Assembly (NCBI GenBank): GCA_038256975.1
Contig: JBBSJU010000002.1
Coordinates: 1,064-65,063, forward strand
Origin: Minisyncoccia bacterium
GTDB taxonomy: Bacteria; Patescibacteriota; Minisyncoccia; Phycocordibacterales; UBA5272
DNA: 64,000 nt
Reading direction: 5' to 3'
In this document: positions 16,218 to 59,658 of the stretch, in pieces
Position numbering within the stretch: the first letter of the stretch is position 1
Layout of the letters: every line of letters starts with the position of its first letter
Notes under the pieces: model-generated
Told to the model about the DNA's origin: nothing
Seen by the model: only the letters and a program-made list of their open reading frames with translations
The model's database searches: none
Made by a program: the position numbers and the translations under genes

Positions 16218-16781
16218 GTGAATACTTCTTCATTTTCCTACACTAATTCCGAACCATTCTTTGCACGAGTTGTTTCCTGTCCTCATTGGGAAGACCACCA
16301 CATAGAACGAGCGAAATCTGCAAATGATTTTAAGTTGCTCGGCGAGCTTGTGTGTGAAGTAGCAGAGAGAATGCCGAAACCTCTTTTTATGGTTTCGGGT
16401 CCGATGACCACTGGTGGCATGGGCTCATATTCAAAAAATATTCTCCTGTTTCAGCATGCGATAGACGAAGCGATCAAAGCAGGTGTAACTGTGTTTAATC
16501 AAACAATGCTTGAAGAGCATTTGCAGCGTTTGGTGCGAGAATGGCTTACTTGTAATCCCGAGTCAGAATATTGCAATCATGTGCTTACTGATGTGTACGA
16601 AGCCTTGCTCGCTTCAGGGCACATACACGGTGTGTACTTTATGCCAGACTGGCACACCTCGCGTGGGGCGCGATGGGAAAGGGAAGCCGCAGAGCGTCTT
16701 AATGTTGCAATTCACGACTATCCAGGCGAATGGTACGAAAAAGCAACGAGCAGAACAAAACTATTTTTTAACGAAGATTAA
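16218..16781 (+). CDS. hypothetical protein (possibly DUF4406 / nucleoside 2-deoxyribosyltransferase-like fold)
   Basis: LFMVSGPMTTGG motif recalls the YISGPMTG loop; weak. Confidence 0.3.
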   Translation: MNTSSFSYTNSEPFFARVVSCPHWEDHHIERAKSANDFKLLGELVCEVAERMPKPLFMVSGPMTTGGMGSYSKNILLFQHAIDEAIKAGVTVFNQTMLEEHLQRLVREWLTCNPESEYCNHVLTDVYEALLASGHIHGVYFMPDWHTSRGARWEREAAERLNVAIHDYPGEWYEKATSRTKLFFNED

Positions 16782-19700
16782 ATTTTTCGAGCTTCTTCAA
16801 GGATGAGCGATTTCTCATCATTTCTGAGTGATACCTTTGCTTTAATGGAAAGGCATGTGTCCGGCACAAGAATACTTTTGAGTTCTTTGTATGTGCGAGG
16901 GAATACAACCGCCTCTGTGGTACCAGAGAGATCGGCAAGTTTAAGGAAACACATTTTCTCACCTTTTTTAGTATCTATTTCACGAACTTCTTGAATAATG
17001 CAGCCCAGGTCGCGCACCGTTTCCCCATCTTGCCATTCATCGCCTTTTAACTTTGCAAAATTCTCTTTCTTTTTTTCGAAGACATGTTTCCATTTATCGA
17101 GTGGGTGTCCAGAAATGAAGAGTCCAAGGAGTTCCTTTTCCCACTGGAGTTTTTGGTCGTTTGAAATAAGGGGAACTTCTTTGAGTCGAATGTCATGAAA
17201 ATCATCATGCATCACAAAGAGGCTTTCTTGGGAAGCATTGCTTTGCATGTGGTTGCGGTGATACTCAAGAATATTTTCTACATTACCGTAGAGAATGCCA
17301 CGGTCACCAAGGTCATCGAGCGCACCTGACATCACAAGTGCTTCGATAGATTTTTTGTTCACATTTTTATGCGTTACGCGTTGTAAGAAACTTGAAAGAG
17401 AGACGAAGGGTCCATTTGCTTTACGTTCGTTAATGATTCCATTTGCAATATCTTCACCAAAGTTTTTGATTGAGTAGAGTCCAAAACGAATCTCGTCTTT
17501 TCGGGTTTCTTTATTTGGCACTACAGTAAATGATCCCTCACTAAAGTTTACACTCGGAGGCAGTACGTCAATACCAAGCTTTTTACAATCATCAATAGAT
17601 TCAGCAACTTTTTCCGTGTCACCCGCTTCAGCAGAGAGGACACTCGCCATATATTCAGCAGCATAGTTCGCTTTGAGGTATGCTGTGATATATGCTACCC
17701 ATCCGTACGATACGGAGTGAGCTTTATTAAAACCATAAGCGGCGAATGGTTCAATCCAACTCCAAATTTGTTTTGCTTTCGACTCACTCCAGCCAGAATG
17801 AGTTACACAACCTTTGATAAACTTTTCTTTTTGTGCGGCCATTTCCTCAGGAATCTTTTTTCCTACAGCTTTACGGAATTTATCCACCTCACCCCAGGTA
17901 TAGCCAGCGAGTTTGTTTGCCATCATTAAAAGGTCGTCTTGGTATACCAAAATACCGTACGTCTTTTCAAGAATCGGCTCAAGTGCAGGGTCGAGATATG
18001 AAATCTTGCTTCTGTCATGCTTACGAGCAATATATTCAGGGATGAATTGAATAGGTCCGGGGCGGTAAAGAGCCACCATGGCGTTTATATCGTGAATACT
18101 TGTTGGTTTAAGGTCAATCAAGTATTTAGTCATGCCGTCACCGTTTAACTGAAACAGGTCCGCAGTTTCGCCACGCGCGAGCATTTCAAATGTTTTTATA
18201 TCATCAAGAGGAACTTTATCGATATCAATAAGAACGCCGAATCTTTTTTCGATAAGCTCAATTGCATTTTTAATGATTTTTAAGTTTTTAAGTCCAAGGA
18301 AGTCAAATTTAAGAAGCCCCGCTTCTTCGATGGTGTACATGTCGTACTGAGAAATGATTTTTTTCTCACCCTTGGTGTCATATTGCAGCGGTGTGAAGTC
18401 GGTGAGTGCGGATGGAGAAATAACTACGCCTGCGGCATGAACAGAAACGTGTCGAGCACATCCTTCGATCTTTTTTGCAGTATCAATAATTGCTTTTGTA
18501 TCTGGATCTTGATCGTACAACTCTTTAAGTTCTGGTGTTGTTTCGAGCGCGTGCGCGATTGTCATCGGGAAACCTTGTGAGCCCATGGGAATAAGTTTTG
18601 AAATCTTATCACCAACTGCATACTCGTATTTCATGGCACGTGCTACGTCTCGCACGGAGCCACGGGCAGCCATGGTTCCAAATGTTCCTATTTGAGCAAC
18701 TTTATCAGCGCCATATTTTTGTCGTGAGTAGTCAATCATTTCATCTCGTCTGTTGTCGGCAAAGTCCATATCGATATCCGGCGCAGACGGACGCTCTGGG
18801 TTCAAGAAGCGTTCAAAAGGAATTTGGAACTCAATAGGGTCAATGTTGGTAATACCGGAGAGATAAGTGACCATAGATCCTGATACTGATCCACGAATGT
18901 TAGAAAGAATACCGTGAGAGCGAGCATATGCAAGTAAATCGGCAACCACAAGAAAGTAAGGCGAATATCCTTTCTGTTTAATAACAGAAAGTTCATATTC
19001 TACACGCGTAAGCGCACTCTCTGTTTTCTCTACTCCTCGTCTTGCAAATCCCTCAAATACAATACGACGGAGTTCGTCATCAGCGGTTTTTCCTTCAGGG
19101 ATATCTATGTTTGGGAAAACCCATTTTCCAAGTTCAATTTCGAGGTTACACATCTCGGCAACTTTTCGGGTGTTTGCAACTGCTTCTGGAATATCACGGA
19201 AGTAGTTGTTGGCAGTTTTTGTATCAATGAAAGAATAATCATCTTTACCAAATCCATATTTGTTTTCACGACCTTCATTTTGAATACCCACAAGTACTTC
19301 ATGGGCATCGCGGTCATCAGGATTCAGATAGTACACGTTTTGTGTACCAACAAGCGGAACGCCAAGCTCTTTTGCAAGCACTACCAGTCCATCACGAATA
19401 GGCTTTGCGTTGTCATACGCAACTTGTGCAACAATTTCAATAAAATAATTTTCTTTTCCAAAAATATCTTGATGCTCACGAACAACATCCTCGGCTCTTT
19501 TTTTGTCGATGATGACTGTTTTTGAAAGTTCGCCGCCAGGACCACCAGAAAGACAAATAAGTCCTTCACTGTGAGCACGTAAAAGCTCTTTGTCGACACG
19601 GGGTTTATAGTAAAAACCTTCTAAGTTAGAAAGGGTAACGAGCTTAATGAGATTTTTATACCCCACTTCATTTTTAGCAAGGAGGGTGAGTCTATATCGG

Positions 19701-19954
19701 CGAGTGTCTTCTTTACTATCTTTATCAAACCGAGTTCGAGTAGCAACAAATGCATCAAGTCCGATGATTGGCTTTATACCAGAGTCCTTACACTTTTTAT
19801 AAAACTCAATCGTGCTGTACATGTTGCCATTTTCAGTCAGGGCAAGGGCAGGCATCTCGAATTCTTTGGCACGTTCTACAAGCTCGTCTATTTTTGCAAG
19901 ACCTTCAAGAAGGGAATAATGAGAGTGAGTGTGAAGATGAATAAACGGCTCCAT
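16778..19954 (-). CDS. dnaE: DNA polymerase III alpha subunit
   Basis: 1058 aa; PHP domain HLHTHSHYSLLEG; polymerase core and OB-fold regions. Confidence 0.95.
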   Translation of the reverse strand: MEPFIHLHTHSHYSLLEGLAKIDELVERAKEFEMPALALTENGNMYSTIEFYKKCKDSGIKPIIGLDAFVATRTRFDKDSKEDTRRYRLTLLAKNEVGYKNLIKLVTLSNLEGFYYKPRVDKELLRAHSEGLICLSGGPGGELSKTVIIDKKRAEDVVREHQDIFGKENYFIEIVAQVAYDNAKPIRDGLVVLAKELGVPLVGTQNVYYLNPDDRDAHEVLVGIQNEGRENKYGFGKDDYSFIDTKTANNYFRDIPEAVANTRKVAEMCNLEIELGKWVFPNIDIPEGKTADDELRRIVFEGFARRGVEKTESALTRVEYELSVIKQKGYSPYFLVVADLLAYARSHGILSNIRGSVSGSMVTYLSGITNIDPIEFQIPFERFLNPERPSAPDIDMDFADNRRDEMIDYSRQKYGADKVAQIGTFGTMAARGSVRDVARAMKYEYAVGDKISKLIPMGSQGFPMTIAHALETTPELKELYDQDPDTKAIIDTAKKIEGCARHVSVHAAGVVISPSALTDFTPLQYDTKGEKKIISQYDMYTIEEAGLLKFDFLGLKNLKIIKNAIELIEKRFGVLIDIDKVPLDDIKTFEMLARGETADLFQLNGDGMTKYLIDLKPTSIHDINAMVALYRPGPIQFIPEYIARKHDRSKISYLDPALEPILEKTYGILVYQDDLLMMANKLAGYTWGEVDKFRKAVGKKIPEEMAAQKEKFIKGCVTHSGWSESKAKQIWSWIEPFAAYGFNKAHSVSYGWVAYITAYLKANYAAEYMASVLSAEAGDTEKVAESIDDCKKLGIDVLPPSVNFSEGSFTVVPNKETRKDEIRFGLYSIKNFGEDIANGIINERKANGPFVSLSSFLQRVTHKNVNKKSIEALVMSGALDDLGDRGILYGNVENILEYHRNHMQSNASQESLFVMHDDFHDIRLKEVPLISNDQKLQWEKELLGLFISGHPLDKWKHVFEKKKENFAKLKGDEWQDGETVRDLGCIIQEVREIDTKKGEKMCFLKLADLSGTTEAVVFPRTYKELKSILVPDTCLSIKAKVSLRNDEKSLILEEARKI

Positions 19955-30809: not shown

Positions 30810-31300
30810 TGGTTATATAAACAGATGGTAAGCCACCAAGTCATTTGCAAGAAAATGTACCCGACTATGGGGGCTTTGAGTCGTGGGTAATCCACATTCC
30901 ACCGACTCAGAAGGCCTCCGAAGCGATTCGGAGGTTTTTCATTAGAAAATTTGTGGTTCTTCTGAAGTTGGAGAAAAACATGATCGGAGAAGGGTGTCTC
31001 CCGATGGATGCGTTTGATGAGAAGAGGCCTGGCCGACGACCAACAGGCGCACCAGATAAACCAGTAGTTGTTGTCGTGCCGAGCACGACAAGGGGGTCAC
31101 CAATTGGTGGCCAGCCGCTTACCAAAGAACGGCAGGATCAGTCCGCCACAGGGCTCGATCCAGGTGCTGGAAATTACACCTGATTTCAGGGGAGGGAGCG
31201 CAAAGGTCGCATGTAAGTGAAAATACTCGGAAGGTTCGAGAATTTAGCTTGCATGCGGCTTTTTATTTTGTCTCAAAACAGTATGAGGTTCGTGATATTA
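30810..31300. ncRNA. candidate structured non-coding RNA (unclassified); long GC-rich intergenic region
   Basis: About 450 nt with no credible ORF (only low-complexity Pro/Gly/Arg ORFs on both strands); GC well above neighbours; several stable hairpins (CCTCCGaagcgattCGGAGG, GTCGTGCcgaGCACGAC). Confidence 0.2.
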
Positions 31301-31303
31301 TGT

Positions 31304-32350
31304 ATGTATATATTTATGTCTACTCAAAAAATATTTTTCCTCACTCTTTTCTTAAGCGCATTTGGCGTACTTGCATATATTTTTAGTCCGTTCTTCGCAG
31401 TTATTCTTCTTGGGGTTGTATCAGGAATTGCCCTGGAACCATTTTTTGTGTGGGCACGTACAACACTTAAGCTTGGACCGTCGCTCGCATCTCTATTTGT
31501 TGTTTTTGTCGTTGTTATTGTTTTAGGAGCAACTACAAGTCTTGTCGGTACGCAGCTTGCATCCCAGGCACAAAATGTATATCAAAATGTAATAGCAGGA
31601 AATCAGTACGAGCTTAAAGATGCTTCGGAGTATGTAAATACTCTTATCCGACCATTCAATAAAGCGTACACGATTGATCTTCAGAAGTATATCAATCCTG
31701 TTGTTACTTTTATTGCTCAAAATGTTGGGGATATTGTTTCAGGAACTGCATCAGTTATTTTTAAATTCTTTTTATGGCTTGTTACCTTGTATTTTATTTT
31801 GAAAGATGGACGAAAAATTAAGTCACTTCTTGTAAAACTAAGTCCGCTGAAAGATGTTCACGACGACAAACTTTTCCAACATGTGGCGGCTTCGGCGCGA
31901 TCAATTGTGAAAGGGGTTTTCTTCATCGCACTTATTCAAGGTTTTTTTGTCGGATTGGGTTTATGGTTTGTGGGAATCGAGAACGCAATCTTCTGGGGGC
32001 TTATTGCTGCTATTGCCGCACCTATTCCGCTTTTAGGAACAAGCGTCATTATGATTCCTTCAATCGCCTACCTTCTCATTACGTCGCAGTTTGTGCCTGC
32101 GCTCGTGCTCATTGTTTGGGGAATCACAGCTGTTGGGCTTGTTGATAACGTTCTCAGTCCATATTTCTATTCAAAGGGAACAGAAATTCATCCGCTTATT
32201 CTTTTGTTTTCAATCTTGGGCGGACTTGCGGTGTTCGGACCTATAGGATTTATTGGTGGTCCACTTATCGCAACAATCGCCTTTACGCTAACCTCTTTGT
32301 ATCAAGAAATTGTATTGGAAGAATTACCTAAAAAAGCAGAAAATAACTAA
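31304..32350 (+). CDS. AI-2E family transporter (PerM/UPF0118)
   Basis: About 350 aa, 7-8 TM, typical AI-2E topology; start uncertain (31217, 31304 or 31316). Confidence 0.65.
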   Translation: MYIFMSTQKIFFLTLFLSAFGVLAYIFSPFFAVILLGVVSGIALEPFFVWARTTLKLGPSLASLFVVFVVVIVLGATTSLVGTQLASQAQNVYQNVIAGNQYELKDASEYVNTLIRPFNKAYTIDLQKYINPVVTFIAQNVGDIVSGTASVIFKFFLWLVTLYFILKDGRKIKSLLVKLSPLKDVHDDKLFQHVAASARSIVKGVFFIALIQGFFVGLGLWFVGIENAIFWGLIAAIAAPIPLLGTSVIMIPSIAYLLITSQFVPALVLIVWGITAVGLVDNVLSPYFYSKGTEIHPLILLFSILGGLAVFGPIGFIGGPLIATIAFTLTSLYQEIVLEELPKKAENN

Positions 32351-32386
32351 GAACGACGCTGTGAGCCGGGTGGTATACTGCTATAC

Positions 32387-35300
32387 ATGAAGGCTGTTTT
32401 TGAAGAGCGATATAAGAAATTAAACGAAGCGCAAAAACGGGCCGTTGATACAACAGAAGGTCCGGTGCTTGTTATTGCTGGGCCTGGATCAGGAAAGACC
32501 GAACTTCTTTCGTTACGTGTTGTAAACATTTTACGGCAGGGCAATGTTGGTCCGCAGAATATTCTTTGCCTTACATTTACTAATAGTGGCGCGCTCAATA
32601 TGCGAGAGCGTCTTGTGCAGCTCATGGGCGCAGATGCATATCGTGTAGGTATTTTTACATTCCACGCATTTTGTAGTCACGTCATTTCTCGCTTCCCTGA
32701 ATATTTTTATAATGCTGCAACATTTGTAAATATTTCTGATGTTGTTCGTGCTGAGATTCTAGAGTCGATATTTGCTCAGTTGCCACACAAGCATCCTTTG
32801 GCGAGCTATCATCCTGAACTTGGATATGCGTATCTTTATAATGCAAAAGAACGTATCAAACATATAAAAAACGGCGGATTTACTCCAGAAGAATTTCGTG
32901 CGGTTTTAGAACATACACTTTCTGAATACGAAGCCGTGCATAAAGCATTCTCTTTGTGGCCAGAATCAATGCGAGGCAAGGGAAGTATCGCAGATGTGCG
33001 CGCTGTGTACGAATCGCTTCTAAAACTTTCTTCGAATACAACTGCCCGGGCATTAGTAAGTACGCTTTTGCTTGCACTTGAAAAAGCAGAGCAAGAAAAC
33101 AAAACGACCACGATTACAAAGTGGCAAAATACGTACACCGTGAAAGGTTCTGACGGAAGAATACTAAAAGAATTTGCAAAGGTAGATAAAATGCAGGCAC
33201 TTGCAGATGTGTATGAAAAATATACAGAAACACTTCATGTCCGAGGCTACTATGATTATGATGACATGATTATTGATGTGTCACATGCTTTACAAAAATA
33301 TGATGTACTTCGTGCAGAATTAGAAGAGCAATATCAGTACGTTCTTATTGATGAATTTCAAGACACAAATGAGGCTCAAATGAATGTAGTCCGTGCTATC
33401 ACACAAAATGAAGTGTATGAAGGGAAGGCAAATATTTGTGTGGTGGGAGATGATGATCAGGCGATTTATAAATTCCAAGGTGCTGAAATATCCCACATGA
33501 TGGATTTTCGTAGTCGTTTATATAAAGATGTACAAACGATTGTTTTGGATAAAAACTACCGCTCTACAAAGGATATTTTAGATTTGGCGCGTTCCGTTAT
33601 AATCCAAGGCAATATTCGTCTTGAAAATCGTTATCAGGACATTACTAAAGTACTTGCCTCAGCAAGTACAGATCTTCCAAAGGGATCCGTTGAGATTGTC
33701 TCCTACGTTTCTGATCTGGAGGAGTATCAATCGGTCGTTAAAAAAATTCGTGCCGAGTTAGATGCAGGTATTCCACCAGAAGAAATTGCAGTGATTGCAC
33801 GTGAACATAAGCAGTTGCGAAACCTTTTGCCACATTTACATCATGCGGGCATTGGGTATACGTATAAAAAAAGTGCTAATGTTTTTGATGAACCTCATAT
33901 ACGCGAACTTATAACTATCTGTGAGTATCTAGCCTCAGGGTTATCGTATGAGGGTACGCGCACTGATCTACTTCCTCAGATTCTTTCCTTCTCCTTTTTT
34001 AATCTTCCACGGACAACACTTTTTTTACTAGCAGAAAAAGTTAAAAAAGAAAATATATCATGGGCAAAGGCACTTACTGAAAACAGTGACAAAAAAGTGC
34101 AAAACATGTTCGAGCTTTTAGCAACGCTTTCTGTTGACGCAAAAACAACACCACTTGAACACGTGCTGAATCTTTTTATAGAGAAAAGTGGTTTCAAGGA
34201 ATATTATTTCAGTGAAAGGGTTCGTAAAGAGCGACCGGGAGATTATGTGCACTTTCTAGCTAATCTCAAAACATTCATCGACGCACTTCGTGAACATAAA
34301 GAAGGTCAAATATTAACTGTAGCTGATGTTGGTTCATTTGTTGCAATGCATAAGGATTACGATATTCCGCTCATAGCGCATTCACCATATACACAAAGCG
34401 AGCATGCGGTATCGCTTCTTTCAGCACATGATGCAAAAGGGTTGGAGTTCGGAAGTGTCTATCTTATAAATGTTCATGAGGACAGCTGGGCAAAACCATC
34501 AAAACGAAAAAATAAAATTACACTGCCACTTGTTTTGAATACACTGCTTACGCCTGCTGGAGATGAGGAAGATGACTTCATCCGTTTGTTGTATGTGGCA
34601 ATTACACGTGCAAAACATACTCTACATATAAGTTCTCATGACAAACAAGTACGGTATCTTGTGGGGAGAGAAGATGTGGAAGGGAAAGATGAATCTTCAG
34701 ATGATAGAGAGGTTTCTGAAGATGAGATTATTTCTTTGCATGAGCAAGTGCTTGGACTCGCGCAAGCACCATATACCAATGATGAACAAATAATATTTAA
34801 ACGCTTGGTGGAAAATTATCAGATGCCAGTGACGCACCTTACGAATTTTTTGAATGTTATAGAGGGCGGACCTGCCCTTTTCCTTGAGCGAAACCTTCTC
34901 CGTTTTCCTGCGCCATTGAATGCTTCGGGTGCCTACGGAAGTGCGGTACACAAAGCCATTGAAGAAATTATTACATATCCACGATTTTATGGTGGCGAGA
35001 AACCAGCTCTCAAGCACGTGCTCGGTGTTTTCGATCACACGCTTTCTCGAGCACGTCTTCCACAAGAAGATGATGTACGAGAAAGAGATCGAGGACATAA
35101 ACTTCTTGAGAAGTACTATGCTCTTCGCGGAGATTTTTTCTTGCATAATGATCAGGTTGAGGTTGACATGAAAAATGAAGGGGCTGTTGTTGAGGGTGCG
35201 CACTTAACGGGAAAGTTAGACTTCTTACGCATAGAAAACAATGGTGTTTTTGTTCGTGATTTTAAAACAGGAAAAGCATTTGACTCATGGGATCGTGCAA

Positions 35301-35620
35301 AAGTAGATTACGAAAAAGTAAAACTCCACAATCAAAAATTACAGCTTATTTTTTACAAAATACTTCTCGAGAATTCAAATCGTTTCAAAAACTTTTCAGT
35401 CAGCTCACTTATTCTGGAATATGTAGAGGGAAATGAAGATTCTCCAGTGGTGGAACTCGCACTTGATCCGAGCACTGAAGACGTGGAACGAACAAAAAAA
35501 CTTATTGGTATTGTGTATAAAAAAATAAGAGCACTTGATTTTCCTGATGTGAGCGAGTACTCAAAAGATTATAAAGGAATTTTAGCTTTCGAGGATGATT
35601 TATTAGCTGGGAAAATATAA
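32387..35620 (+). CDS. AddA/RexA-like UvrD-family helicase with C-terminal RecB-family (PD-(D/E)XK) nuclease domain
   Basis: Walker A AGPGSGKT and UvrD motifs; C-terminus GKLDFLRIENNGVFVRDFKTGK...QLIFYKIL matches the RecB nuclease motifs (hhDhKTG, QhxxY). Confidence 0.8.
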   Translation: MKAVFEERYKKLNEAQKRAVDTTEGPVLVIAGPGSGKTELLSLRVVNILRQGNVGPQNILCLTFTNSGALNMRERLVQLMGADAYRVGIFTFHAFCSHVISRFPEYFYNAATFVNISDVVRAEILESIFAQLPHKHPLASYHPELGYAYLYNAKERIKHIKNGGFTPEEFRAVLEHTLSEYEAVHKAFSLWPESMRGKGSIADVRAVYESLLKLSSNTTARALVSTLLLALEKAEQENKTTTITKWQNTYTVKGSDGRILKEFAKVDKMQALADVYEKYTETLHVRGYYDYDDMIIDVSHALQKYDVLRAELEEQYQYVLIDEFQDTNEAQMNVVRAITQNEVYEGKANICVVGDDDQAIYKFQGAEISHMMDFRSRLYKDVQTIVLDKNYRSTKDILDLARSVIIQGNIRLENRYQDITKVLASASTDLPKGSVEIVSYVSDLEEYQSVVKKIRAELDAGIPPEEIAVIAREHKQLRNLLPHLHHAGIGYTYKKSANVFDEPHIRELITICEYLASGLSYEGTRTDLLPQILSFSFFNLPRTTLFLLAEKVKKENISWAKALTENSDKKVQNMFELLATLSVDAKTTPLEHVLNLFIEKSGFKEYYFSERVRKERPGDYVHFLANLKTFIDALREHKEGQILTVADVGSFVAMHKDYDIPLIAHSPYTQSEHAVSLLSAHDAKGLEFGSVYLINVHEDSWAKPSKRKNKITLPLVLNTLLTPAGDEEDDFIRLLYVAITRAKHTLHISSHDKQVRYLVGREDVEGKDESSDDREVSEDEIISLHEQVLGLAQAPYTNDEQIIFKRLVENYQMPVTHLTNFLNVIEGGPALFLERNLLRFPAPLNASGAYGSAVHKAIEEIITYPRFYGGEKPALKHVLGVFDHTLSRARLPQEDDVRERDRGHKLLEKYYALRGDFFLHNDQVEVDMKNEGAVVEGAHLTGKLDFLRIENNGVFVRDFKTGKAFDSWDRAKVDYEKVKLHNQKLQLIFYKILLENSNRFKNFSVSSLILEYVEGNEDSPVVELALDPSTEDVERTKKLIGIVYKKIRALDFPDVSEYSKDYKGILAFEDDLLAGKI

Positions 35621-35622
35621 TT

Positions 35623-36462
35623 ATGCCTGATAAATATACAGCAATCTGGGTTTCGCATTCTTCCATGGGGGATTTTATCAAGTGTCCACGTTTGTATTAT
35701 CTGAAAAATGTATATAAAGATCCCAAGACAAAGCGAAAAATGAATATTGTTACCCCGGCGCTTTCTCTTGGCGTTTCGGTGCATGAAGTGCTTGAAGGTT
35801 TGGGTGATTTTTCAAGTGAATCTCGCATGAAGAGAGATTTGGTTTCGTGGTTTGAAGAAGTTTGGAAAAAGGTTTCAGGCATACAGGGTGGTTTTATGAG
35901 TGTAGAGCAAGAAAATGAGTATAAAGCTCGTGGTATTGCCATGCTTGAAAACGTACAGCGTGATCCAAAATTTCTTGTACAAAAACGCATTAAGCTTCCG
36001 AAAGGAGAAATGAATCCAAATTTTTATTTGAGTGAGGATGACAATATTATTTTAAATGGACTTATTGACTGGATAGAGTATCTTCCTGAAACAGACTCGC
36101 TTCATATTATTGATTTCAAAACAGGAAAGTATGAAGAAGGTGAAGGCTCTTTGCAATTACCAATATATCTTCTCTTATGCCACGCACTCCAGAAAAGAAA
36201 AGTTACCAAAGCGTCGTATTGGTATTTGGAGACTGACAAGATTGTTGAAAAAGATTTACCAGATCTTGATACCGCACGAAAGGATGTACTTGAAGTTGCC
36301 TGTAAGGTAAAAGAGGCTCGGGTAGATAATGAATTTAGGTGTCCAAAAGGAGATTCAGGATGTGTACACTGCAAGCCATTTGAGAAAGTTTTACAAAAAG
36401 ATCCATCAGTTATGCATGTTGGAATAGGGGGGTTTAATCAAGATTTGTATGTGATAAAATAG
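35623..36462 (+). CDS. Cas4/AddB-like PD-(D/E)XK nuclease with putative 4Fe-4S cysteine cluster (stand-alone, 279 aa)
   Basis: IIDFKTGK...LQLPIYLL nuclease motifs; Cys at IKCPRLYY (N-terminal) plus CPKGDSGCVHC (C-terminal), the Cas4/AddB Fe-S arrangement. Confidence 0.65.
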   Translation: MPDKYTAIWVSHSSMGDFIKCPRLYYLKNVYKDPKTKRKMNIVTPALSLGVSVHEVLEGLGDFSSESRMKRDLVSWFEEVWKKVSGIQGGFMSVEQENEYKARGIAMLENVQRDPKFLVQKRIKLPKGEMNPNFYLSEDDNIILNGLIDWIEYLPETDSLHIIDFKTGKYEEGEGSLQLPIYLLLCHALQKRKVTKASYWYLETDKIVEKDLPDLDTARKDVLEVACKVKEARVDNEFRCPKGDSGCVHCKPFEKVLQKDPSVMHVGIGGFNQDLYVIK

Positions 36463-36466
36463 ACAC

Positions 36467-37231
36467 ATGGAACTTTTATTCACTTTATTTTTTATGATAC
36501 CAATTATTGCATTTGCGATTGTTCTCCTTTTTATAGTTATTCGTCAGGTCAATCAATATCAGCGTGGAGTTAAGTTTACAATGGGTCGTTTTACAGGAAT
36601 GGTTGAGCCGGGTTGGAGAATCATCATCCCTATCTTTCAAAGCATGACGAAAGTAGATATGCGTTTGAAAGCTGTTGATGTACTCGATCAGCGCACTATC
36701 ACAAAGGATAATATTTCAGTGAATGTAAACGCCGTCCTATACTATCGTGTTGTTGACGCAAGCAAGGCAATTTTACAGGTTCAGTATTATCAGAATGCCG
36801 TTGAACAATTTGCCCAAACAACAATGCGTAGTGTTGTTGGTGAGGTAACCCTCGACGAGCTTTTACAGGGCAGAGATAAAATAGCTGAGCGTATTCAGTC
36901 AATTGTTGAGAGCACTGCTGCTGGCTGGGGTCTTCTCGTGGAAAATGTGGAATTAAAAGATATTAGTTTGCCACCAGAAATGGAGCGTACTATTGCAAAA
37001 CAAGCAGAAGCTGAGCGAGAAAAGCGTGCAGTGATTATTACTTCGGAAGGTGAGCTTGGGGCGGCAAAAAATATGGCCGACGCGGCACGGATTTTAGCTG
37101 AGACTCCTGGCGCGCTCCATCTTCGTACGTTGCAGTCTATCAACGACATGTCTTCCGATCAATCAAACACAGTTATCTACATGGTACCAGTAGAGGTTTT
37201 GAAAGCATTTGACGGATTCGTGAAAAAATAA
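36467..37231 (+). CDS. SPFH/Band-7 (stomatin/prohibitin-like) membrane protein
   Basis: N-terminal TM then SPFH domain (VKFTMGRFTG...ISVNVNAVLYYRVVDA...). Confidence 0.8.
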   Translation: MELLFTLFFMIPIIAFAIVLLFIVIRQVNQYQRGVKFTMGRFTGMVEPGWRIIIPIFQSMTKVDMRLKAVDVLDQRTITKDNISVNVNAVLYYRVVDASKAILQVQYYQNAVEQFAQTTMRSVVGEVTLDELLQGRDKIAERIQSIVESTAAGWGLLVENVELKDISLPPEMERTIAKQAEAEREKRAVIITSEGELGAAKNMADAARILAETPGALHLRTLQSINDMSSDQSNTVIYMVPVEVLKAFDGFVKK

Positions 37232-37238
37232 ATTTCAA

Positions 37239-37961
37239 ATGAAGCAGCGCCTAGATCTCGCTATTGTCTCTCGCAGCTTGTGTCGTAGTCGAACTGAGGC
37301 ACAGGATAGAATTACTCACGGTAAAGTACTTGTTAATGGAGTAGTAGAATCAAAACCGGCCAAAGAGGTCTCTGATACTGACACTATACGAATCACAGAG
37401 TATATGCCATTTGCTTCCCGTGGTGGAGTGAAGCTACAGCACGCGATTGAATATTTTCACATAGATATACAAGGAAAAACACTGCTTGATGTTGGCTCAT
37501 CGACAGGAGGCTTTACCGATTGTCTTTTGCAAAACGGTGCACAAAAGGTATATGCGGTTGATGTGGGAACATTTCAAATGGTGGATACGATTAAAACAGA
37601 TTCTCGGGTAGTGCTTATGGAGCAGACAGATATTCGTGAAGCCGTGCTTCCTGAACGTGTTCACGGCATTGTTGTCGATGTCTCGTTCATCTCGCTTTCA
37701 AAAATACTTCCCACTCTCTCGAAGTTTATTCTCCCAGGAGGATTCATTATTGCGCTCATCAAGCCGCAGTTTGAAGTGGGTCAGGCAAATCTCGGGAAGG
37801 GGGGTATCGTTGTAAGCGACGAAGCTCGTGAGGATGCAGTAACCGCCGTTTTAAAAAGCGCAACTGAAAATGGGATTTCTATACGTGACGTAACTCCATC
37901 ACCTATTGTTGGTGGTGATGGGAATAAAGAATTTTTACTTTACGGAATATATGCTCTCTAA
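37239..37961 (+). CDS. tlyA: TlyA-family rRNA 2'-O-methyltransferase (S4 domain + FtsJ-like MTase)
   Basis: S4-like RLDLAIVSRSL...; SAM-binding LDVGSSTGGFTD. Confidence 0.85.
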   Translation: MKQRLDLAIVSRSLCRSRTEAQDRITHGKVLVNGVVESKPAKEVSDTDTIRITEYMPFASRGGVKLQHAIEYFHIDIQGKTLLDVGSSTGGFTDCLLQNGAQKVYAVDVGTFQMVDTIKTDSRVVLMEQTDIREAVLPERVHGIVVDVSFISLSKILPTLSKFILPGGFIIALIKPQFEVGQANLGKGGIVVSDEAREDAVTAVLKSATENGISIRDVTPSPIVGGDGNKEFLLYGIYAL

Positions 37962-38556
37962 GGAAGAAAAATTTGAAGCGCTTAAAGAAATTCGCGATGA
38001 ACTCCTTGTGTTTAGCCAGTCGCCACTTTATGAATATCGAACAAAAAATAAATTCTTTCCAGTTATAGGAGAGGGGAGTCATGATGCGCACATTATGATT
38101 ATTGGAGAGGCACCAGGAAAAAAAGAAGCACTCACTGGACGGCCGTTTTGTGGCGCATCAGGAAAATTTTTAGATGAGTTGTGTGCTCATATTGGTCTGG
38201 ATCGCAAAGATGTCTATGTGACTAATATTGTAAAAGATAGACCGGAAGACAACAGAGATCCTTCACAGACAGAAATAAACCTATACGGACCCTTTTTAGA
38301 TAGACAGCTTGAAATTATCCAACCAAGAGTTATTGCAACCTTGGGGCGATTTTCAATGGTCTACATTATGGAAAAACTCGGACTAAAAAATGACGTACAG
38401 CCTATCTCTATACTTCACGGGAAAGTTTTACAGGGCAAACTTCCGTATGGCGACGTGGCACTTGTTTCTTTGTATCATCCAGCCGTGGCGCTTTATAACG
38501 GTAGTATGCGAGACGTTCTTAAAAAAGATTTTGAAAGTCTGAAAGAATTTATATAG
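37951..38556 (+). CDS. uracil-DNA glycosylase, family 4
   Basis: GEAPGKKEALTGRPFCGASGKFLDELC motif; 11-nt overlap with tlyA. Confidence 0.8.
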   Translation: MLSKEEKFEALKEIRDELLVFSQSPLYEYRTKNKFFPVIGEGSHDAHIMIIGEAPGKKEALTGRPFCGASGKFLDELCAHIGLDRKDVYVTNIVKDRPEDNRDPSQTEINLYGPFLDRQLEIIQPRVIATLGRFSMVYIMEKLGLKNDVQPISILHGKVLQGKLPYGDVALVSLYHPAVALYNGSMRDVLKKDFESLKEFI

Positions 38557-38586: not shown

Positions 38587-39177
38587 ATGATAAGTAAAAA
38601 GGTTCTGGAAAAAGAGTACCAAAATAAATCAATTGCTGAGATTGCAAGAAAATATAAACTAGCAACAAGCACCGTTCAGTCTTGGTTTAAGAAGTACGCA
38701 ATAAAAACACGGTCAATTAGTGAGGGTGTGTATCTTAAGCATAACCCAAAAGGTGATCCATTTTCTTTTAGAAAACCAAAAAATATACAGGAGAGTTTTT
38801 TATCGGGATTAGGTGTGGGTTTATTTTGGGGTGAGGGCACAAAAGCGAAATCAACATCAATTCGTCTCGGAAATACGGATCCTGATTTAATCAGACAGTT
38901 CGTAAGGTTTTTAGATACGATATTAGGTATTCCAAAAAACAAATTAAAATTTAGCTTGCAGATATTTTCTGACATGAATCCGATAGCGGCGCAACAATTT
39001 TGGATAAAATATCTAAAGGTCTCAGACTCTCAATTTACTAAGACTACTATTACAAAGTCTCGGGGATTGGGGACGTATAAAACAAAGACAAAATATGGCG
39101 TTCTTATTGTGTATTTTCATAATAAAAAAGCTCGTGATTTCATGATTGGTATGTTAGAATCTCTACGTTGTTATTAA
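38587..39177 (+). CDS. HTH + LAGLIDADG-like (homing-endonuclease-like) domain protein
   Basis: N-terminal HTH (SIAEIARKYKLATSTVQSWFKKY); FLSGLGVGLFWGEGTK loosely resembles a LAGLIDADG motif. Weak. Confidence 0.3.
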   Translation: MISKKVLEKEYQNKSIAEIARKYKLATSTVQSWFKKYAIKTRSISEGVYLKHNPKGDPFSFRKPKNIQESFLSGLGVGLFWGEGTKAKSTSIRLGNTDPDLIRQFVRFLDTILGIPKNKLKFSLQIFSDMNPIAAQQFWIKYLKVSDSQFTKTTITKSRGLGTYKTKTKYGVLIVYFHNKKARDFMIGMLESLRCY

Positions 39178-46313: not shown

Positions 46314-47429
46314 ATGTTCGAATTCCTTAAGAAAATTATACCAGGTTCATCTCAAGGTGGTCATGGATCAAGCGTGCTTGGTATTGATATTGGAAGTTCT
46401 GCTATTAAAGTAGTGCAGTTGCGTAAAAAGGATGGTAAAGCAATTCTTGAAACATACGGTGCACTCGCTCTTGGTCCCTATGCTGGCTTGGAAGTAGGGC
46501 AAGCAACCAATTTAGATCAAGTAAAGGTTGCACAAGCACTCACCGATATTATCCGTGAAGCGAAAGTGACTACAAAAGACTGCGCTATAGCCATTCCGCT
46601 TTCGGCAAGCTTAGTGCGCACGGTGACACTTCCTCGGGTGAGTGAAAAAGAATTAGCAACCATGGTTCCTATTGAAGCGCGCAAATATATTCCTGTGCCG
46701 ATCGGAGAGGTAAATTTAGATTGGTGGGTTATTCCAAATCAAGCTGTTGAAAGTGAAACTGAAGACGAAGCGACACGAGTGCCAAAAGTCGAGGTCCTTA
46801 TTGCAGCTATTCATAATGAAACTGTTGAGAAGTACAAAGTCATTAGTCAGACAGCAGGTATAGTGCCTACTTTTTATGAGATAGAACTCTTTAGTACAGT
46901 GCGCTCTGTACTTCGTCGCGAAATGTCGCCAACACTTGTGATAGATATTGGGGCAGGCGCTACAAAAGTTTCTTTGGTGGAGCGTGGGGTACTTAAACGC
47001 TCGCACCACATCAATCGTGGTTCGCAAGACATCACCCTTGCTATCTCCCGATCTCTGGGTGTTTCTATAAAACAAGCCGAAGACATGAAGCGTCGCTATG
47101 GAACGCTTGGCAAAAAAGATGACGATGCTATTCGTGAATTAGTTGAACTCACCTCGGAATTTATTTTTAGCCAAGCTGCTCAAGTTGCGCTTGCGTACGA
47201 ACGCCAAGAAAACAAAATTATTAAAAAAGCAATTCTCACCGGCGGTGGGGCACTGCTTAAAGGTGTACTTACTGATGCGCAAGAAAAACTTGAAATGGAA
47301 GTAATCACAGGACATCCGTTCTCCGTTGTGGAGGCTCCGGTATTTTTACACGATATTCTCTCCCAAGCGGGTCCAGAATTTGCTGTGGCTATTGGTCTTG
47401 CACTTCGCAAACTTGAAGAGTTGGGGTAG
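46314..47429 (+). CDS. pilM: type IV pilus assembly ATPase-like protein PilM
   Basis: Actin-like fold N-terminus GIDIGSSAIKVVQL. Confidence 0.8.
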   Translation: MFEFLKKIIPGSSQGGHGSSVLGIDIGSSAIKVVQLRKKDGKAILETYGALALGPYAGLEVGQATNLDQVKVAQALTDIIREAKVTTKDCAIAIPLSASLVRTVTLPRVSEKELATMVPIEARKYIPVPIGEVNLDWWVIPNQAVESETEDEATRVPKVEVLIAAIHNETVEKYKVISQTAGIVPTFYEIELFSTVRSVLRREMSPTLVIDIGAGATKVSLVERGVLKRSHHINRGSQDITLAISRSLGVSIKQAEDMKRRYGTLGKKDDDAIRELVELTSEFIFSQAAQVALAYERQENKIIKKAILTGGGALLKGVLTDAQEKLEMEVITGHPFSVVEAPVFLHDILSQAGPEFAVAIGLALRKLEELG

Positions 47430-49967: not shown

Positions 49968-51713
49968 ATGCTTTTAGTCGACGAACTAGTACGACTGGGA
50001 TATCTCACAGAAGTTGCTGCAAATCAGGCCCTCTCTGAGCATCGTGCGGTGGAGGACGAAGCGCCTATTGATGCGTATGTAGAAAAATATGGCGTAACTG
50101 AAGATCAGCTTTTGAAGGCGCGCAGCAATCTCTACGGTATTCCTATTAGAAAAATAGACCCAAAGACAATTGATCCCCAAGTATTGAAATATATTGCCCA
50201 AGAGTCTGCGGCGCAGTATAAATTCATTCCGCTCGCCGTCAATGACGGTATTCTTGAGGTGGGGATGGTTGATCCTGAATTTTTGTCTGCAAAAGATGCC
50301 TTACAGTTTATTTCGGCAAAAATAGGTTTGCCGTACGCTATAGTTTTAATCGCTCAATCTGAGTTCGACAAGGCGCTTGAAATGTATCGTGGAATAAGTG
50401 GTGAGGTAGACAAGGCGCTTGAAGAATTCGGTGTTGAAAATTTAGATGATACCGACAATAAGTACTCGAACGATAAAGATCTCACTGAAGCATATAAAGC
50501 CGTGGCAAAAGGCGGGAATGCGAATGCGATTGTTGAAGATGCACCTGTAACAAAAATTGTTTCAGTTATTTTACGTCACGCGCTTGAGCAAAATGCATCA
50601 GATATTCATATCGAACACGTAGGAGATAAGGTGAAGGTTCGTTTCCGAATCGACGGTGTTCTTGAAACGAATATCACGCTTCCTCCAACCGTGCATAGTG
50701 CTGTTGTTGCGCGTATAAAAATTATGGCAAGTTTAAAACTTGATGAAAAACGTAAACCCCAAGACGGACGTTTTTCTTCGATGTTTAATGGACATAAAAT
50801 AGACTTTCGTGTTTCGTCGCTTCCTGCATATTACGGTGAGAAAGTGGTAATTCGTATTCTCGACTCATATCGTGGAGTAAAGCCTCTTGAAGATGTTGGG
50901 TTTACCACAGAAGCACTGCAGATTATTCGTGACAGTATTCGCCGCCCGTACGGACTTATTCTGATTAGTGGTCCAACTGGAAGTGGAAAAACGACCACAC
51001 TCTATTCGATGTTAAATGAAATTGACCGTGACAAACAAAACGTTGTTTCTCTTGAAGATCCGGTAGAATATAATATTCCGGGACTGAATCAGTCGCAAAT
51101 TATGCCAGAAATTGGCTATACGTTTGCTACGGGATTGCGTTCTATTTTGCGCCAAGACCCCGATGTGATCATGGTTGGTGAAATTCGCGACAAAGAAACA
51201 GCGCAGCTTGCCATTCAAGCCGCACTCACTGGACACCTCGTACTCTCTACAATTCACACCAATAGTGCTATTGGTGTTATTCCACGTCTTGTTGATATGG
51301 GAGTAGACCCATATTTGATTGCTCCAACACTTATTCTAACTATGGCACAACGCCTTGTGCCAAAAATAAATCCAGAGTGCAAAAAAGAAGTTCCACACGA
51401 GGAAAGCATGCGCTCAATGATTCAAAAAGAGTTTGAATCATTACCAGATGAATTTAAAAAGAAGCTCAATCTTACGCGACCATTTTTTGAAGCAGAAGGG
51501 AATGAAGATGTTCCATCTGGCACTACGGGACGTGTGGCTGTGCTTGAAATTCTTCCTATTACCAAAGAGATTGAGCATGTTATTTTAAATGGTGCTCAGG
51601 AACCTGATATTGAAAAAGTTGCACGAGCACAGGGAATGCTCACCATGAAGGAAGACGCCCTTCTTAAAAGTATGGATGGATTTGTGCCACTTCGTGAGGC
51701 ATACAATCTGTAA
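49968..51713 (+). CDS. pilB: type IV pilus assembly ATPase PilB/GspE
   Basis: GspII N-domain; Walker A GPTGSGKTTTLY; Asp and His boxes. Confidence 0.9.
   Translation: MLLVDELVRLGYLTEVAANQALSEHRAVEDEAPIDAYVEKYGVTEDQLLKARSNLYGIPIRKIDPKTIDPQVLKYIAQESAAQYKFIPLAVNDGILEVGMVDPEFLSAKDALQFISAKIGLPYAIVLIAQSEFDKALEMYRGISGEVDKALEEFGVENLDDTDNKYSNDKDLTEAYKAVAKGGNANAIVEDAPVTKIVSVILRHALEQNASDIHIEHVGDKVKVRFRIDGVLETNITLPPTVHSAVVARIKIMASLKLDEKRKPQDGRFSSMFNGHKIDFRVSSLPAYYGEKVVIRILDSYRGVKPLEDVGFTTEALQIIRDSIRRPYGLILISGPTGSGKTTTLYSMLNEIDRDKQNVVSLEDPVEYNIPGLNQSQIMPEIGYTFATGLRSILRQDPDVIMVGEIRDKETAQLAIQAALTGHLVLSTIHTNSAIGVIPRLVDMGVDPYLIAPTLILTMAQRLVPKINPECKKEVPHEESMRSMIQKEFESLPDEFKKKLNLTRPFFEAEGNEDVPSGTTGRVAVLEILPITKEIEHVILNGAQEPDIEKVARAQGMLTMKEDALLKSMDGFVPLREAYNL

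Positions 51714-57008: not shown

Positions 57009-59658
<2,650 letters not shown>

Follow-up and report, generated by a model that had tools for sequence, protein, structure and literature searches.

The 64,000-nucleotide stretch of a Minisyncoccia bacterium genome analysed here (the window; GenBank assembly GCA_038256975.1, contig JBBSJU010000002.1, positions 1,064 to 65,063 of the forward strand) carries two neighbouring + strand genes that we call HEL and NUC. HEL (32387..35620; 1077 amino acids (aa), ATG start) encodes a helicase-nuclease with an AddA/RecB-like architecture, and NUC (35623..36462; 279 aa, ATG start) encodes a stand-alone PD-(D/E)XK nuclease of the Cas4 family, predicted to be of the iron-sulfur (Fe-S) type. 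Our results make it highly probable that both are housekeeping enzymes of DNA metabolism and not defence proteins, and we regard functional cooperation of the two in DNA end processing as about an even bet. The two genes do not constitute a fixed two-gene "minimal AddAB" module. A first-pass annotation made from the sequence had described them as such a pair; the AddA architecture of HEL and the AddB-type nuclease of NUC stood up to analysis, but the conserved module did not, with NUC found independently of HEL and the curated AddA, AddB and Cas4 cut-offs missed.

The first-pass annotation had both reading frames and their 2-nucleotide (nt) spacing right, since the junction (35618..35625, + strand) consists of the HEL stop codon TAA, which ends at 35620, a TT spacer and the NUC ATG at 35623. 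A promoter-like or terminator-like site was looked for in this spacer and none was found, and Rfam and tRNA scans gave no RNA element in or beside the two genes. HEL and NUC are presumably co-transcribed.

Domain architecture of HEL and NUC

Pfam assigns NUC a single domain, PDDEXK_1 (PF12705), which covers residues 10-250 and lies above the gathering threshold (E 2e-20; 74.3 bits against a cut-off of 22), with the match spanning positions 2-240 of the 247 in the profile. The domain contains the motifs IIDFKTGK (D164, K166) and LQLPIYLL (Q178, Y182), and its catalytic residues, D149 and D164-F-K166 (D..DxK; 36067..36120, + strand), align to the DFKTGK of HEL and of ACE1, a Cas4-family enzyme associated with prokaryotic Argonaute (pAgo). 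Four cysteines accompany them, C21 (codon at 35683..35685, + strand) and C240-x6-C247-x2-C250 (36340..36372, + strand), which are predicted to be the N-terminal ligand and the three C-terminal ligands of an Fe-S "iron staple". Across 24 homologues (66-90% identity) none of the four cysteines varies, and neither do H54, E58, D149, D164, K166, Q178 and Y182. The same arrangement of one N-terminal and three C-terminal cysteines has been described for Cas4, AddB, AdnA and ACE1 (PMC12094033). Combined with a PD-(D/E)XK core, this pattern gives NUC the sequence characteristics of an AddB-type nuclease, and it suggests that the protein binds an Fe-S cluster.

On the 3' side of the cysteine cluster, NUC ends in a tail with the pattern VGxGGFNQDxY (aa 266-277; 36418..36453, + strand), in which G267, G269, F271 and Q273 are invariant among the same 24 homologues and which is folded into a beta-hairpin in the structure model (strands 263-268 and 274-278). 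One may speculate that this hairpin is a surface on which a partner protein docks.

The AlphaFold model of NUC has a predicted local distance difference test (pLDDT) score of 90 and a predicted template modelling (pTM) score of 0.85. Foldseek matched it best to ACE1 (9IAB/9IAC; E 5e-10, template modelling (TM) score 0.60) and second to the nuclease domain of AdnA (3e-7, TM 0.60), with further matches to AddB (2e-5), RecE, Dna2 (3e-5) and type I-C Cas4 (8e-4). ACE1 is also the only sequence relative of NUC in the PDB (E 3e-5; 1.6e-6 with a profile). The model and the invariant cysteines thus agree with the first-pass assignment of NUC to the Cas4/AddB-type Fe-S nucleases, which had been drawn from the four cysteines and the DFKTGK and QLPIYLL motifs. 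NUC missed the Cas4 cut-offs (PF01930, 16.9 bits against 22.7; TIGR00372, 28.5 against 65), and a PF01930 match is precomputed for some of its homologues. It also missed the RexB/AddB cut-off (rexB, 14.2 bits against 718.35; NCBIfam TIGR02774, TIGR02786). With 279 aa and one domain, it has neither the length of AddB (~1000-1200 aa) nor the inactivated helicase-like N-terminal scaffold of that protein.

In HEL, Pfam recognises UvrD-helicase (residues 12-376, E 1.8e-62), UvrD_C (385-752, 6.5e-30) and PDDEXK_1 (832-1052, 4.6e-11, 43.6 bits). The first two make up a superfamily 1A (SF1A) motor of the UvrD/PcrA type (aa 12-752; 32420..34642, + strand), whose motifs, Walker A AGPGSGKT (31-38), DEFQD (322-326) and GDDDQAIY (354-361), are at least 95% conserved in 28 orthologues. 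The C-terminal domain (aa 832-1052; 34880..35542, + strand) is a PD-(D/E)XK nuclease of the RecB/AddA type in which H855, D945, VRDFKTGK (D958-x-K960) and QLIFY (Q986, Y990) are all kept in the 28 orthologues, and comparison of these orthologues showed no cysteine in it. Motor and nuclease are joined by an acidic disordered tether (aa 760-790; 34664..34756, + strand; EDVEGKDESSDDREVSEDE) with a pLDDT below 50, which by analogy may be the counterpart of the RecB tether. According to hhalign, the nuclease domains of HEL and NUC are homologues (probability 94%, 21% identity), and that of HEL, when used alone as a query, found no sequence relative in the PDB. Orthologues of HEL (49-87% identity) have the identical domain set, and their sources name them PcrA or ATP-dependent helicase.

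The full-length model of HEL (pLDDT 82) was matched best by the AddA chains 4ceh_A and 3u44_A (E 2e-27, ~1200 columns), followed by UvrD and PcrA, which match the helicase part only, and then by RecB and AdnAB (AdnA, AdnB). Together with the Pfam domains and motifs, this bears out the earlier description of HEL as a UvrD-family helicase that ends in a RecB-type nuclease, as AddA does: HEL follows the AddA plan of an active-type UvrD-like SF1A motor with a C-terminal RecB-type nuclease that lacks Fe-S cysteines. The curated AddA cut-offs were missed (addA_Gpos, 97.1 bits against 707.65; addA_alphas, 126.3 against 860.75; TIGR02785/TIGR02784). Since AddA is the best full-length structural match and these scores are far below the cut-offs, we describe HEL as having an AddA/RecB architecture and not as an AddA equivalog. 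In the profile searches, which the first-pass annotation had proposed for AddA, AddB and Cas4, PDDEXK_1 was above its cut-off and the curated AddA, AddB/RexB and Cas4 models were far below theirs.

The N-terminal UvrD domain of HEL is split by an all-helical insertion of ~150 aa (aa 106-262; 32702-33172), seen as helices in the model, and for this reason the PcrA and UvrD models match HEL in two pieces. The insertion may be the counterpart of the extended 1B "arm" found in RecB/AddA.

The NUC family and its helicase neighbours

At E<=1e-3, 4908 homologues of NUC were found in a database clustered at 90%; among the best 120, identity is never below 67% and the length is ~280 aa. A NUC profile run against 1.84 billion representatives gave 908 matches at E<=1e-3, 74 of which reach E<=1e-30; nearly all of these proteins stand alone and have ~280 aa, and no helicase fusion was found among them. 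All named close homologues of HEL or NUC come from metagenome-assembled genomes of Patescibacteria, the Candidate Phyla Radiation (CPR), such as Paceibacterota, Nomurabacteria and Yonathbacteria, and the named distant members of the NUC family are Patescibacteria as well (Woesebacteria, Curtissbacteria, WWE3). A species-level genome collection contained 462 confirmed NUC relatives, of which the best 80 loci are 51-91% identical and belong to many Patescibacteria classes. Within shared genomes NUC is more conserved than HEL (62-74% against 44-56% identity). No relative was found in 2.9 million viral contigs. As judged from these sequence searches, the NUC family is specific to Patescibacteria, and its lineage-wide conservation together with the lack of viral copies indicates that NUC is a strongly conserved housekeeping gene of this lineage, neither mobile nor part of a defence system.

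Some relatives of NUC depart from the single-domain form. Tandem arrays of 2-5 PDDEXK_1/Cas4-like domains occur in proteins of 554-1297 aa (P0196, P0222, P0245, P0260, P0264); P0196 consists of five tandem nuclease copies, and one cluster member of these relatives is named "RecB family exonuclease". The top match of the NUC profile, P0121 (378 aa), has a GIY-YIG domain (PF01541) at residues 165-232, inserted or fused, which suggests a homing-endonuclease insertion in the gene.

Gene neighbourhoods were compared in the best 80 of the 462 NUC loci (the window and 79 others); open reading frames (ORFs) were called, neighbours were clustered, and linkages were mapped onto a neighbour-joining tree built from the NUC sequences. 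The gene seen most often near NUC is HEL, with 27 of the 79 other loci (28 of 80 with the window); the two genes invariably share a strand, and HEL is upstream except in one locus. The recurrence of the two-gene arrangement, which the first-pass annotation had proposed to survey, was not that of a conserved pair, for these loci fall in one clade and HEL and NUC are directly adjacent in only six of the others. Elsewhere 1-4 unrelated ORFs (~100-230 aa) stand between the two, and gaps range overall from 1 to 2407 nt. The linkage holds down to 44% HEL identity, and flanking and intervening genes turn over. A small ORF of ~104 aa without a Pfam family (cluster c14, e.g. L019:5488-5802) is conserved in ~10 loci; it is located directly 3' of HEL and before NUC in eight loci of the window's clade and 3' of NUC in one more, and it is absent from the window.

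A second kind of helicase recurs beside NUC. A PIF1-like helicase (Pfam PIF1, 3.5e-33; ~550 aa, with a C-terminal HTH_40 domain) is found at most one gene away in 13 loci (L008, L010, L012, L063, L067 and eight more), in at least four separate clades and in three arrangements. The gaps in L063 and L067 are -4 and +5 nt, an overlap and a near abutment. Reversed or different orders of helicase and NUC were seen in L045, L046 and L076, and RuvC is divergently adjacent to NUC in L001 and L007. In the ~20 loci of the deepest NUC clade, to which Woesebacteria, Levyibacteria and Magasanikbacteria belong, a helicase is absent from the 6-7 kb around NUC.

Another helicase-nuclease, HEL2, is encoded at L076:3896-6952 and L045:8596-11526. 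Its motor is PcrA-like, with 508 bits against the PcrA model, and is fused to a nuclease domain that has its own four cysteines; the HEL2 family is strongly conserved (best 120 matches at least 68% identical). Its members P0494 and P0541 (~1340 aa) carry an intein domain (PF14890). We considered and rejected an origin of NUC as a domain split from a helicase: in L076 and L045 NUC coexists with a HEL2 that keeps its own Fe-S nuclease, and no helicase-fused member of the family was found.

The window, a tightly packed segment of a Patescibacteria chromosome of the Paceibacteria type, has core genes for DnaE (16778-19954), NrdD, cysteinyl-tRNA synthetase, the NAD-dependent ligase LigA (57628-59658) and GatA, along with type IV pilus genes (PilM-like, 46314-47429; secretion ATPase, 49968-51713), a DEAD-box helicase and a tRNA cluster. 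The genes nearest to HEL and NUC encode an AI-2E transporter, an SPFH protein, a TlyA-like methyltransferase and a family-4-type uracil-DNA glycosylase (UDG). Neither recA nor addB is present in the 64-kb window, nor is there within it a second UvrD or PD-(D/E)XK paralogue beyond HEL and NUC. The UDG ORF as listed begins with TTG at 37906 and shares its first 56 nt (37906-37961) with the end of the methyltransferase gene, and its real start is probably further downstream. An ORF of 196 aa that lies 3' of the UDG gene (38587-39177) had no Pfam match at E<=0.001; it contains the motif GLFWGEGT, which may be akin to the LAGLIDADG motif of homing endonucleases.

Comparison with known helicase-nuclease systems

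AddAB of Bacillus subtilis (3U44, 4CEH) offers a close parallel in overall plan. HEL shares with AddA the SF1A motor followed by a cysteine-free RecB-type nuclease, the nuclease domain of AddB has the same fold and the same 1+3 cysteine "iron staple" pattern as NUC, and the AddAB logic of one active motor with two nucleases is, as read from the genes, common to HEL-NUC. However, the AddB scaffold, an inactivated helicase-like part of ~800 aa that holds the complex and recognises Chi (PMC3321194), is missing from NUC, and HEL and NUC are adjacent in one clade only.

ACE1 is the closest solved relative of NUC by both sequence and structure, and it has a similar size (~270-280 aa), the D..DxK site and the four cysteines, although the two proteins are only 16-20% identical. 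It is a stand-alone nuclease for single-stranded DNA (ssDNA) whose activity is modulated by a partner protein. ACE1 has been described as an endonuclease with an Fe4S4 cluster into whose narrow channel ssDNA is threaded, in the manner of AdnA, and such a nuclease needs a helicase before it can act on duplex DNA (PMC12094033). While ACE1 is cyanobacterial, is encoded together with a long-A pAgo and functions in defence, NUC is restricted to Patescibacteria and is found in housekeeping contexts, and no Argonaute was found among the NUC neighbours in the window or in related loci.

The mycobacterial AdnAB (6PPU, 9NP6) provides the second-best structural match of NUC, the AdnA nuclease domain, but each of its subunits is a motor-nuclease fusion, unlike the separate 279-aa NUC. 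A fused Fe-S type like that of AdnAB occurs in other Patescibacteria, as HEL2, and not in the window. Dna2 (5EAX) has an Fe-S Cas4-like nuclease domain that matches NUC structurally (E 3e-5), on a single polypeptide with an Upf1-like superfamily 1B (SF1B) motor. Its domain content is mirrored, as separate genes, by NUC and the SF1B PIF1-like 5'-3' helicase in the 13 related loci described above; the window itself contains no PIF1-like or SF1B helicase.

A previous survey of Cas4 by Hudaiberdiev et al. 2017 (PMC5704561) reported solo-Cas4 in many CPR genomes, a set that may or may not include the NUC family. The same work described a monophyletic clade of UvrD-Cas4 fusions in defence contexts, which were proposed to be defence components, and independently of it an operon of unfused UvrD and Cas4-like (pfam12705) genes, mostly in Clostridiales, in non-defence contexts and probably involved in repair. 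These unfused pairs represent the same kind of association as HEL-NUC, except that their helicase was not described with a second nuclease of its own, unlike HEL. In the output of JGI pipelines, homologues of NUC already go by the names "ATP-dependent helicase/DNAse subunit B" or "RecB family exonuclease". Given those pairs and the "subunit B" names, the kind of association seen here was already known. We found nothing specific in the literature on an AddAB-like or end-resection system in CPR/Patescibacteria, and three features appear to be undescribed: a NUC family that is highly conserved and specific to Patescibacteria, the pairing of NUC with an AddA-like helicase that has a second, cysteine-free nuclease of its own, and the alternative linkage of NUC to PIF1-like helicases.

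Possible roles of HEL and NUC in DNA metabolism

If HEL and NUC cooperate, the 3'-5' SF1A motor of HEL would unwind DNA from an end or a gap, and its tethered cysteine-free RecB-type nuclease would cut the strand that the motor tracks. NUC, held together by its Fe-S "iron staple", would thread ssDNA through a narrow channel to the D..DxK site, by analogy with ACE1, AdnA and AddB, and would degrade the displaced 5'-terminated strand. As a nuclease without a motor, it would depend on a helicase for its ssDNA. In the window's clade the partner would most likely be HEL, resulting in an AddAB-like division of labour without the Chi-scanning scaffold of AddB, and in other clades it would be the PIF1-like 5'-3' helicase, resulting in a split Dna2-like arrangement. 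The strand polarity assumed here for HEL and NUC, any coupling between them, be it physical or functional, and a part in the resection of double-strand breaks are all put forward by analogy with these related enzymes. A broader proposal, which we offer tentatively and hold to be possible but unlikely, is that of a modular kit in which one universal motor-less NUC plugs into whichever SF1 motor a lineage keeps, docking by its C-terminal hairpin, so that with HEL it would form a Chi-blind "AddAB without AddB scaffold" and with the PIF1-like helicase a split bacterial Dna2.

Several of our results weigh against cooperation and speak for another explanation, in which HEL is the lineage's UvrD/PcrA-type repair helicase acting alone, NUC is a separate ssDNA exo- or endonuclease (for instance for flap, gap or 5'-end trimming), and the 2-nt spacing merely reflects a compact genome and inherited gene order. 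From 31217 to 38556 nearly all genes are packed on the + strand with tiny gaps, whatever their function. The HEL-NUC linkage is limited to a single NUC clade, that of the window, where it is nearly universal, and it is often broken by unrelated ORFs, several of them on the opposite strand. Other housekeeping clusters are nearly as frequent beside NUC as HEL is, with a SpoU-type methylase cluster in 20 loci and two further clusters in 17 and 17, against 28 for HEL. Taken together, the single-clade linkage and these similarly frequent neighbours mean that HEL-NUC adjacency could be inherited synteny. The two genes are also found apart: a HEL orthologue of 50% identity has no NUC nearby and lies beside ComEC, RecJ and pilin-like genes, and more than 35 of the 80 NUC loci have no helicase within about 6-7 kb. 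HEL2, which adjoins NUC in L076, does not do so in any of three further genomes (0/3), and we rejected its linkage as independent support for that reason. By sequence the HEL motor is nearer to PcrA/UvrD than to AddA or RecB; PcrA is the top curated score of the HEL core (NCBIfam, 273.8 bits with a cut-off of 911), ahead of UvrD (223), RecB (133) and AddA (97-126), and orthologues are named PcrA. HEL could therefore simply be the PcrA/UvrD of the lineage with a nuclease added.

This independence of HEL and NUC is an explanation to be taken seriously, but we consider it on the unlikely side, as no other gene neighbours NUC as often as HEL, which always shares its strand, and NUC is linked repeatedly and independently, in varied arrangements, to two kinds of SF1 helicase. 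It also counts against independence that a motor-less threading nuclease needs a supplier of ssDNA (PMC12094033).

A further possibility is nucleotide scavenging. Patescibacteria are generally regarded as dependent on nucleic acids from outside and as lacking nucleotide synthesis, and HEL and NUC might degrade DNA taken up through the competence/type IV pilus machinery as a source of nucleotides, instead of or besides acting in repair. The type IV pilus genes of the window, the position of HEL beside ComEC, pilin-like genes and RecJ in another genome, and the very strong conservation of a NUC restricted to Patescibacteria are all compatible with such scavenging. However, the 80 loci showed no specific linkage of NUC to competence genes, the RuvC and PIF1 neighbours suggest recombination or replication instead, and the case for scavenging is entirely inferential. 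We regard it as improbable.

Least probable of all, to the point that we rejected it, is an anti-phage helicase-nuclease module (of the UvrD-Cas4 type or Gabija-like) or a solo-Cas4 with a function in immunity or CRISPR adaptation, although PADLOC reported matches to GajB, Cas4 and Argonaute-associated Cas4-like nuclease models, ACE1 as the closest solved structure is a defence protein, and UvrD-Cas4 fusions have been proposed for defence and solo-Cas4 is present in many CPR genomes (PMC5704561). The GajB match covers only the generic UvrD core of HEL, and the Cas4 match likewise reflects generic similarity; genes for GajA, pAgo, Cas proteins, restriction-modification or Dcm/Vsr are all missing from the neighbourhood. 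Moreover, NUC is lineage-wide (51-91% identity) in core-gene neighbourhoods, unlike the patchy and fast-evolving defence genes, and viral relatives were not found. The defence role that the first-pass annotation had offered as an option was thus rejected on grounds of context, conservation, missing partner genes and the lack of viral copies. A CRISPR-Cas4 function was rejected because no cas gene was recognised beside NUC in the 80 loci and the curated Cas4 cut-offs were missed.

If HEL and NUC act independently, the outcome is an ordinary annotation of two repair enzymes. If they cooperate, they would represent the smallest workable bacterial layout for dual-nuclease resection, with one motor, two nucleases and no Chi scaffold. 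The Fe-S "iron staple" nuclease would then be an exchangeable subunit and not a fused domain, and as such would link AddAB, AdnAB and Dna2. NUC is among the more strongly conserved Patescibacteria-specific proteins seen in our analysis, and its function bears on how DNA is maintained or recycled in these reduced and largely uncultured bacteria.

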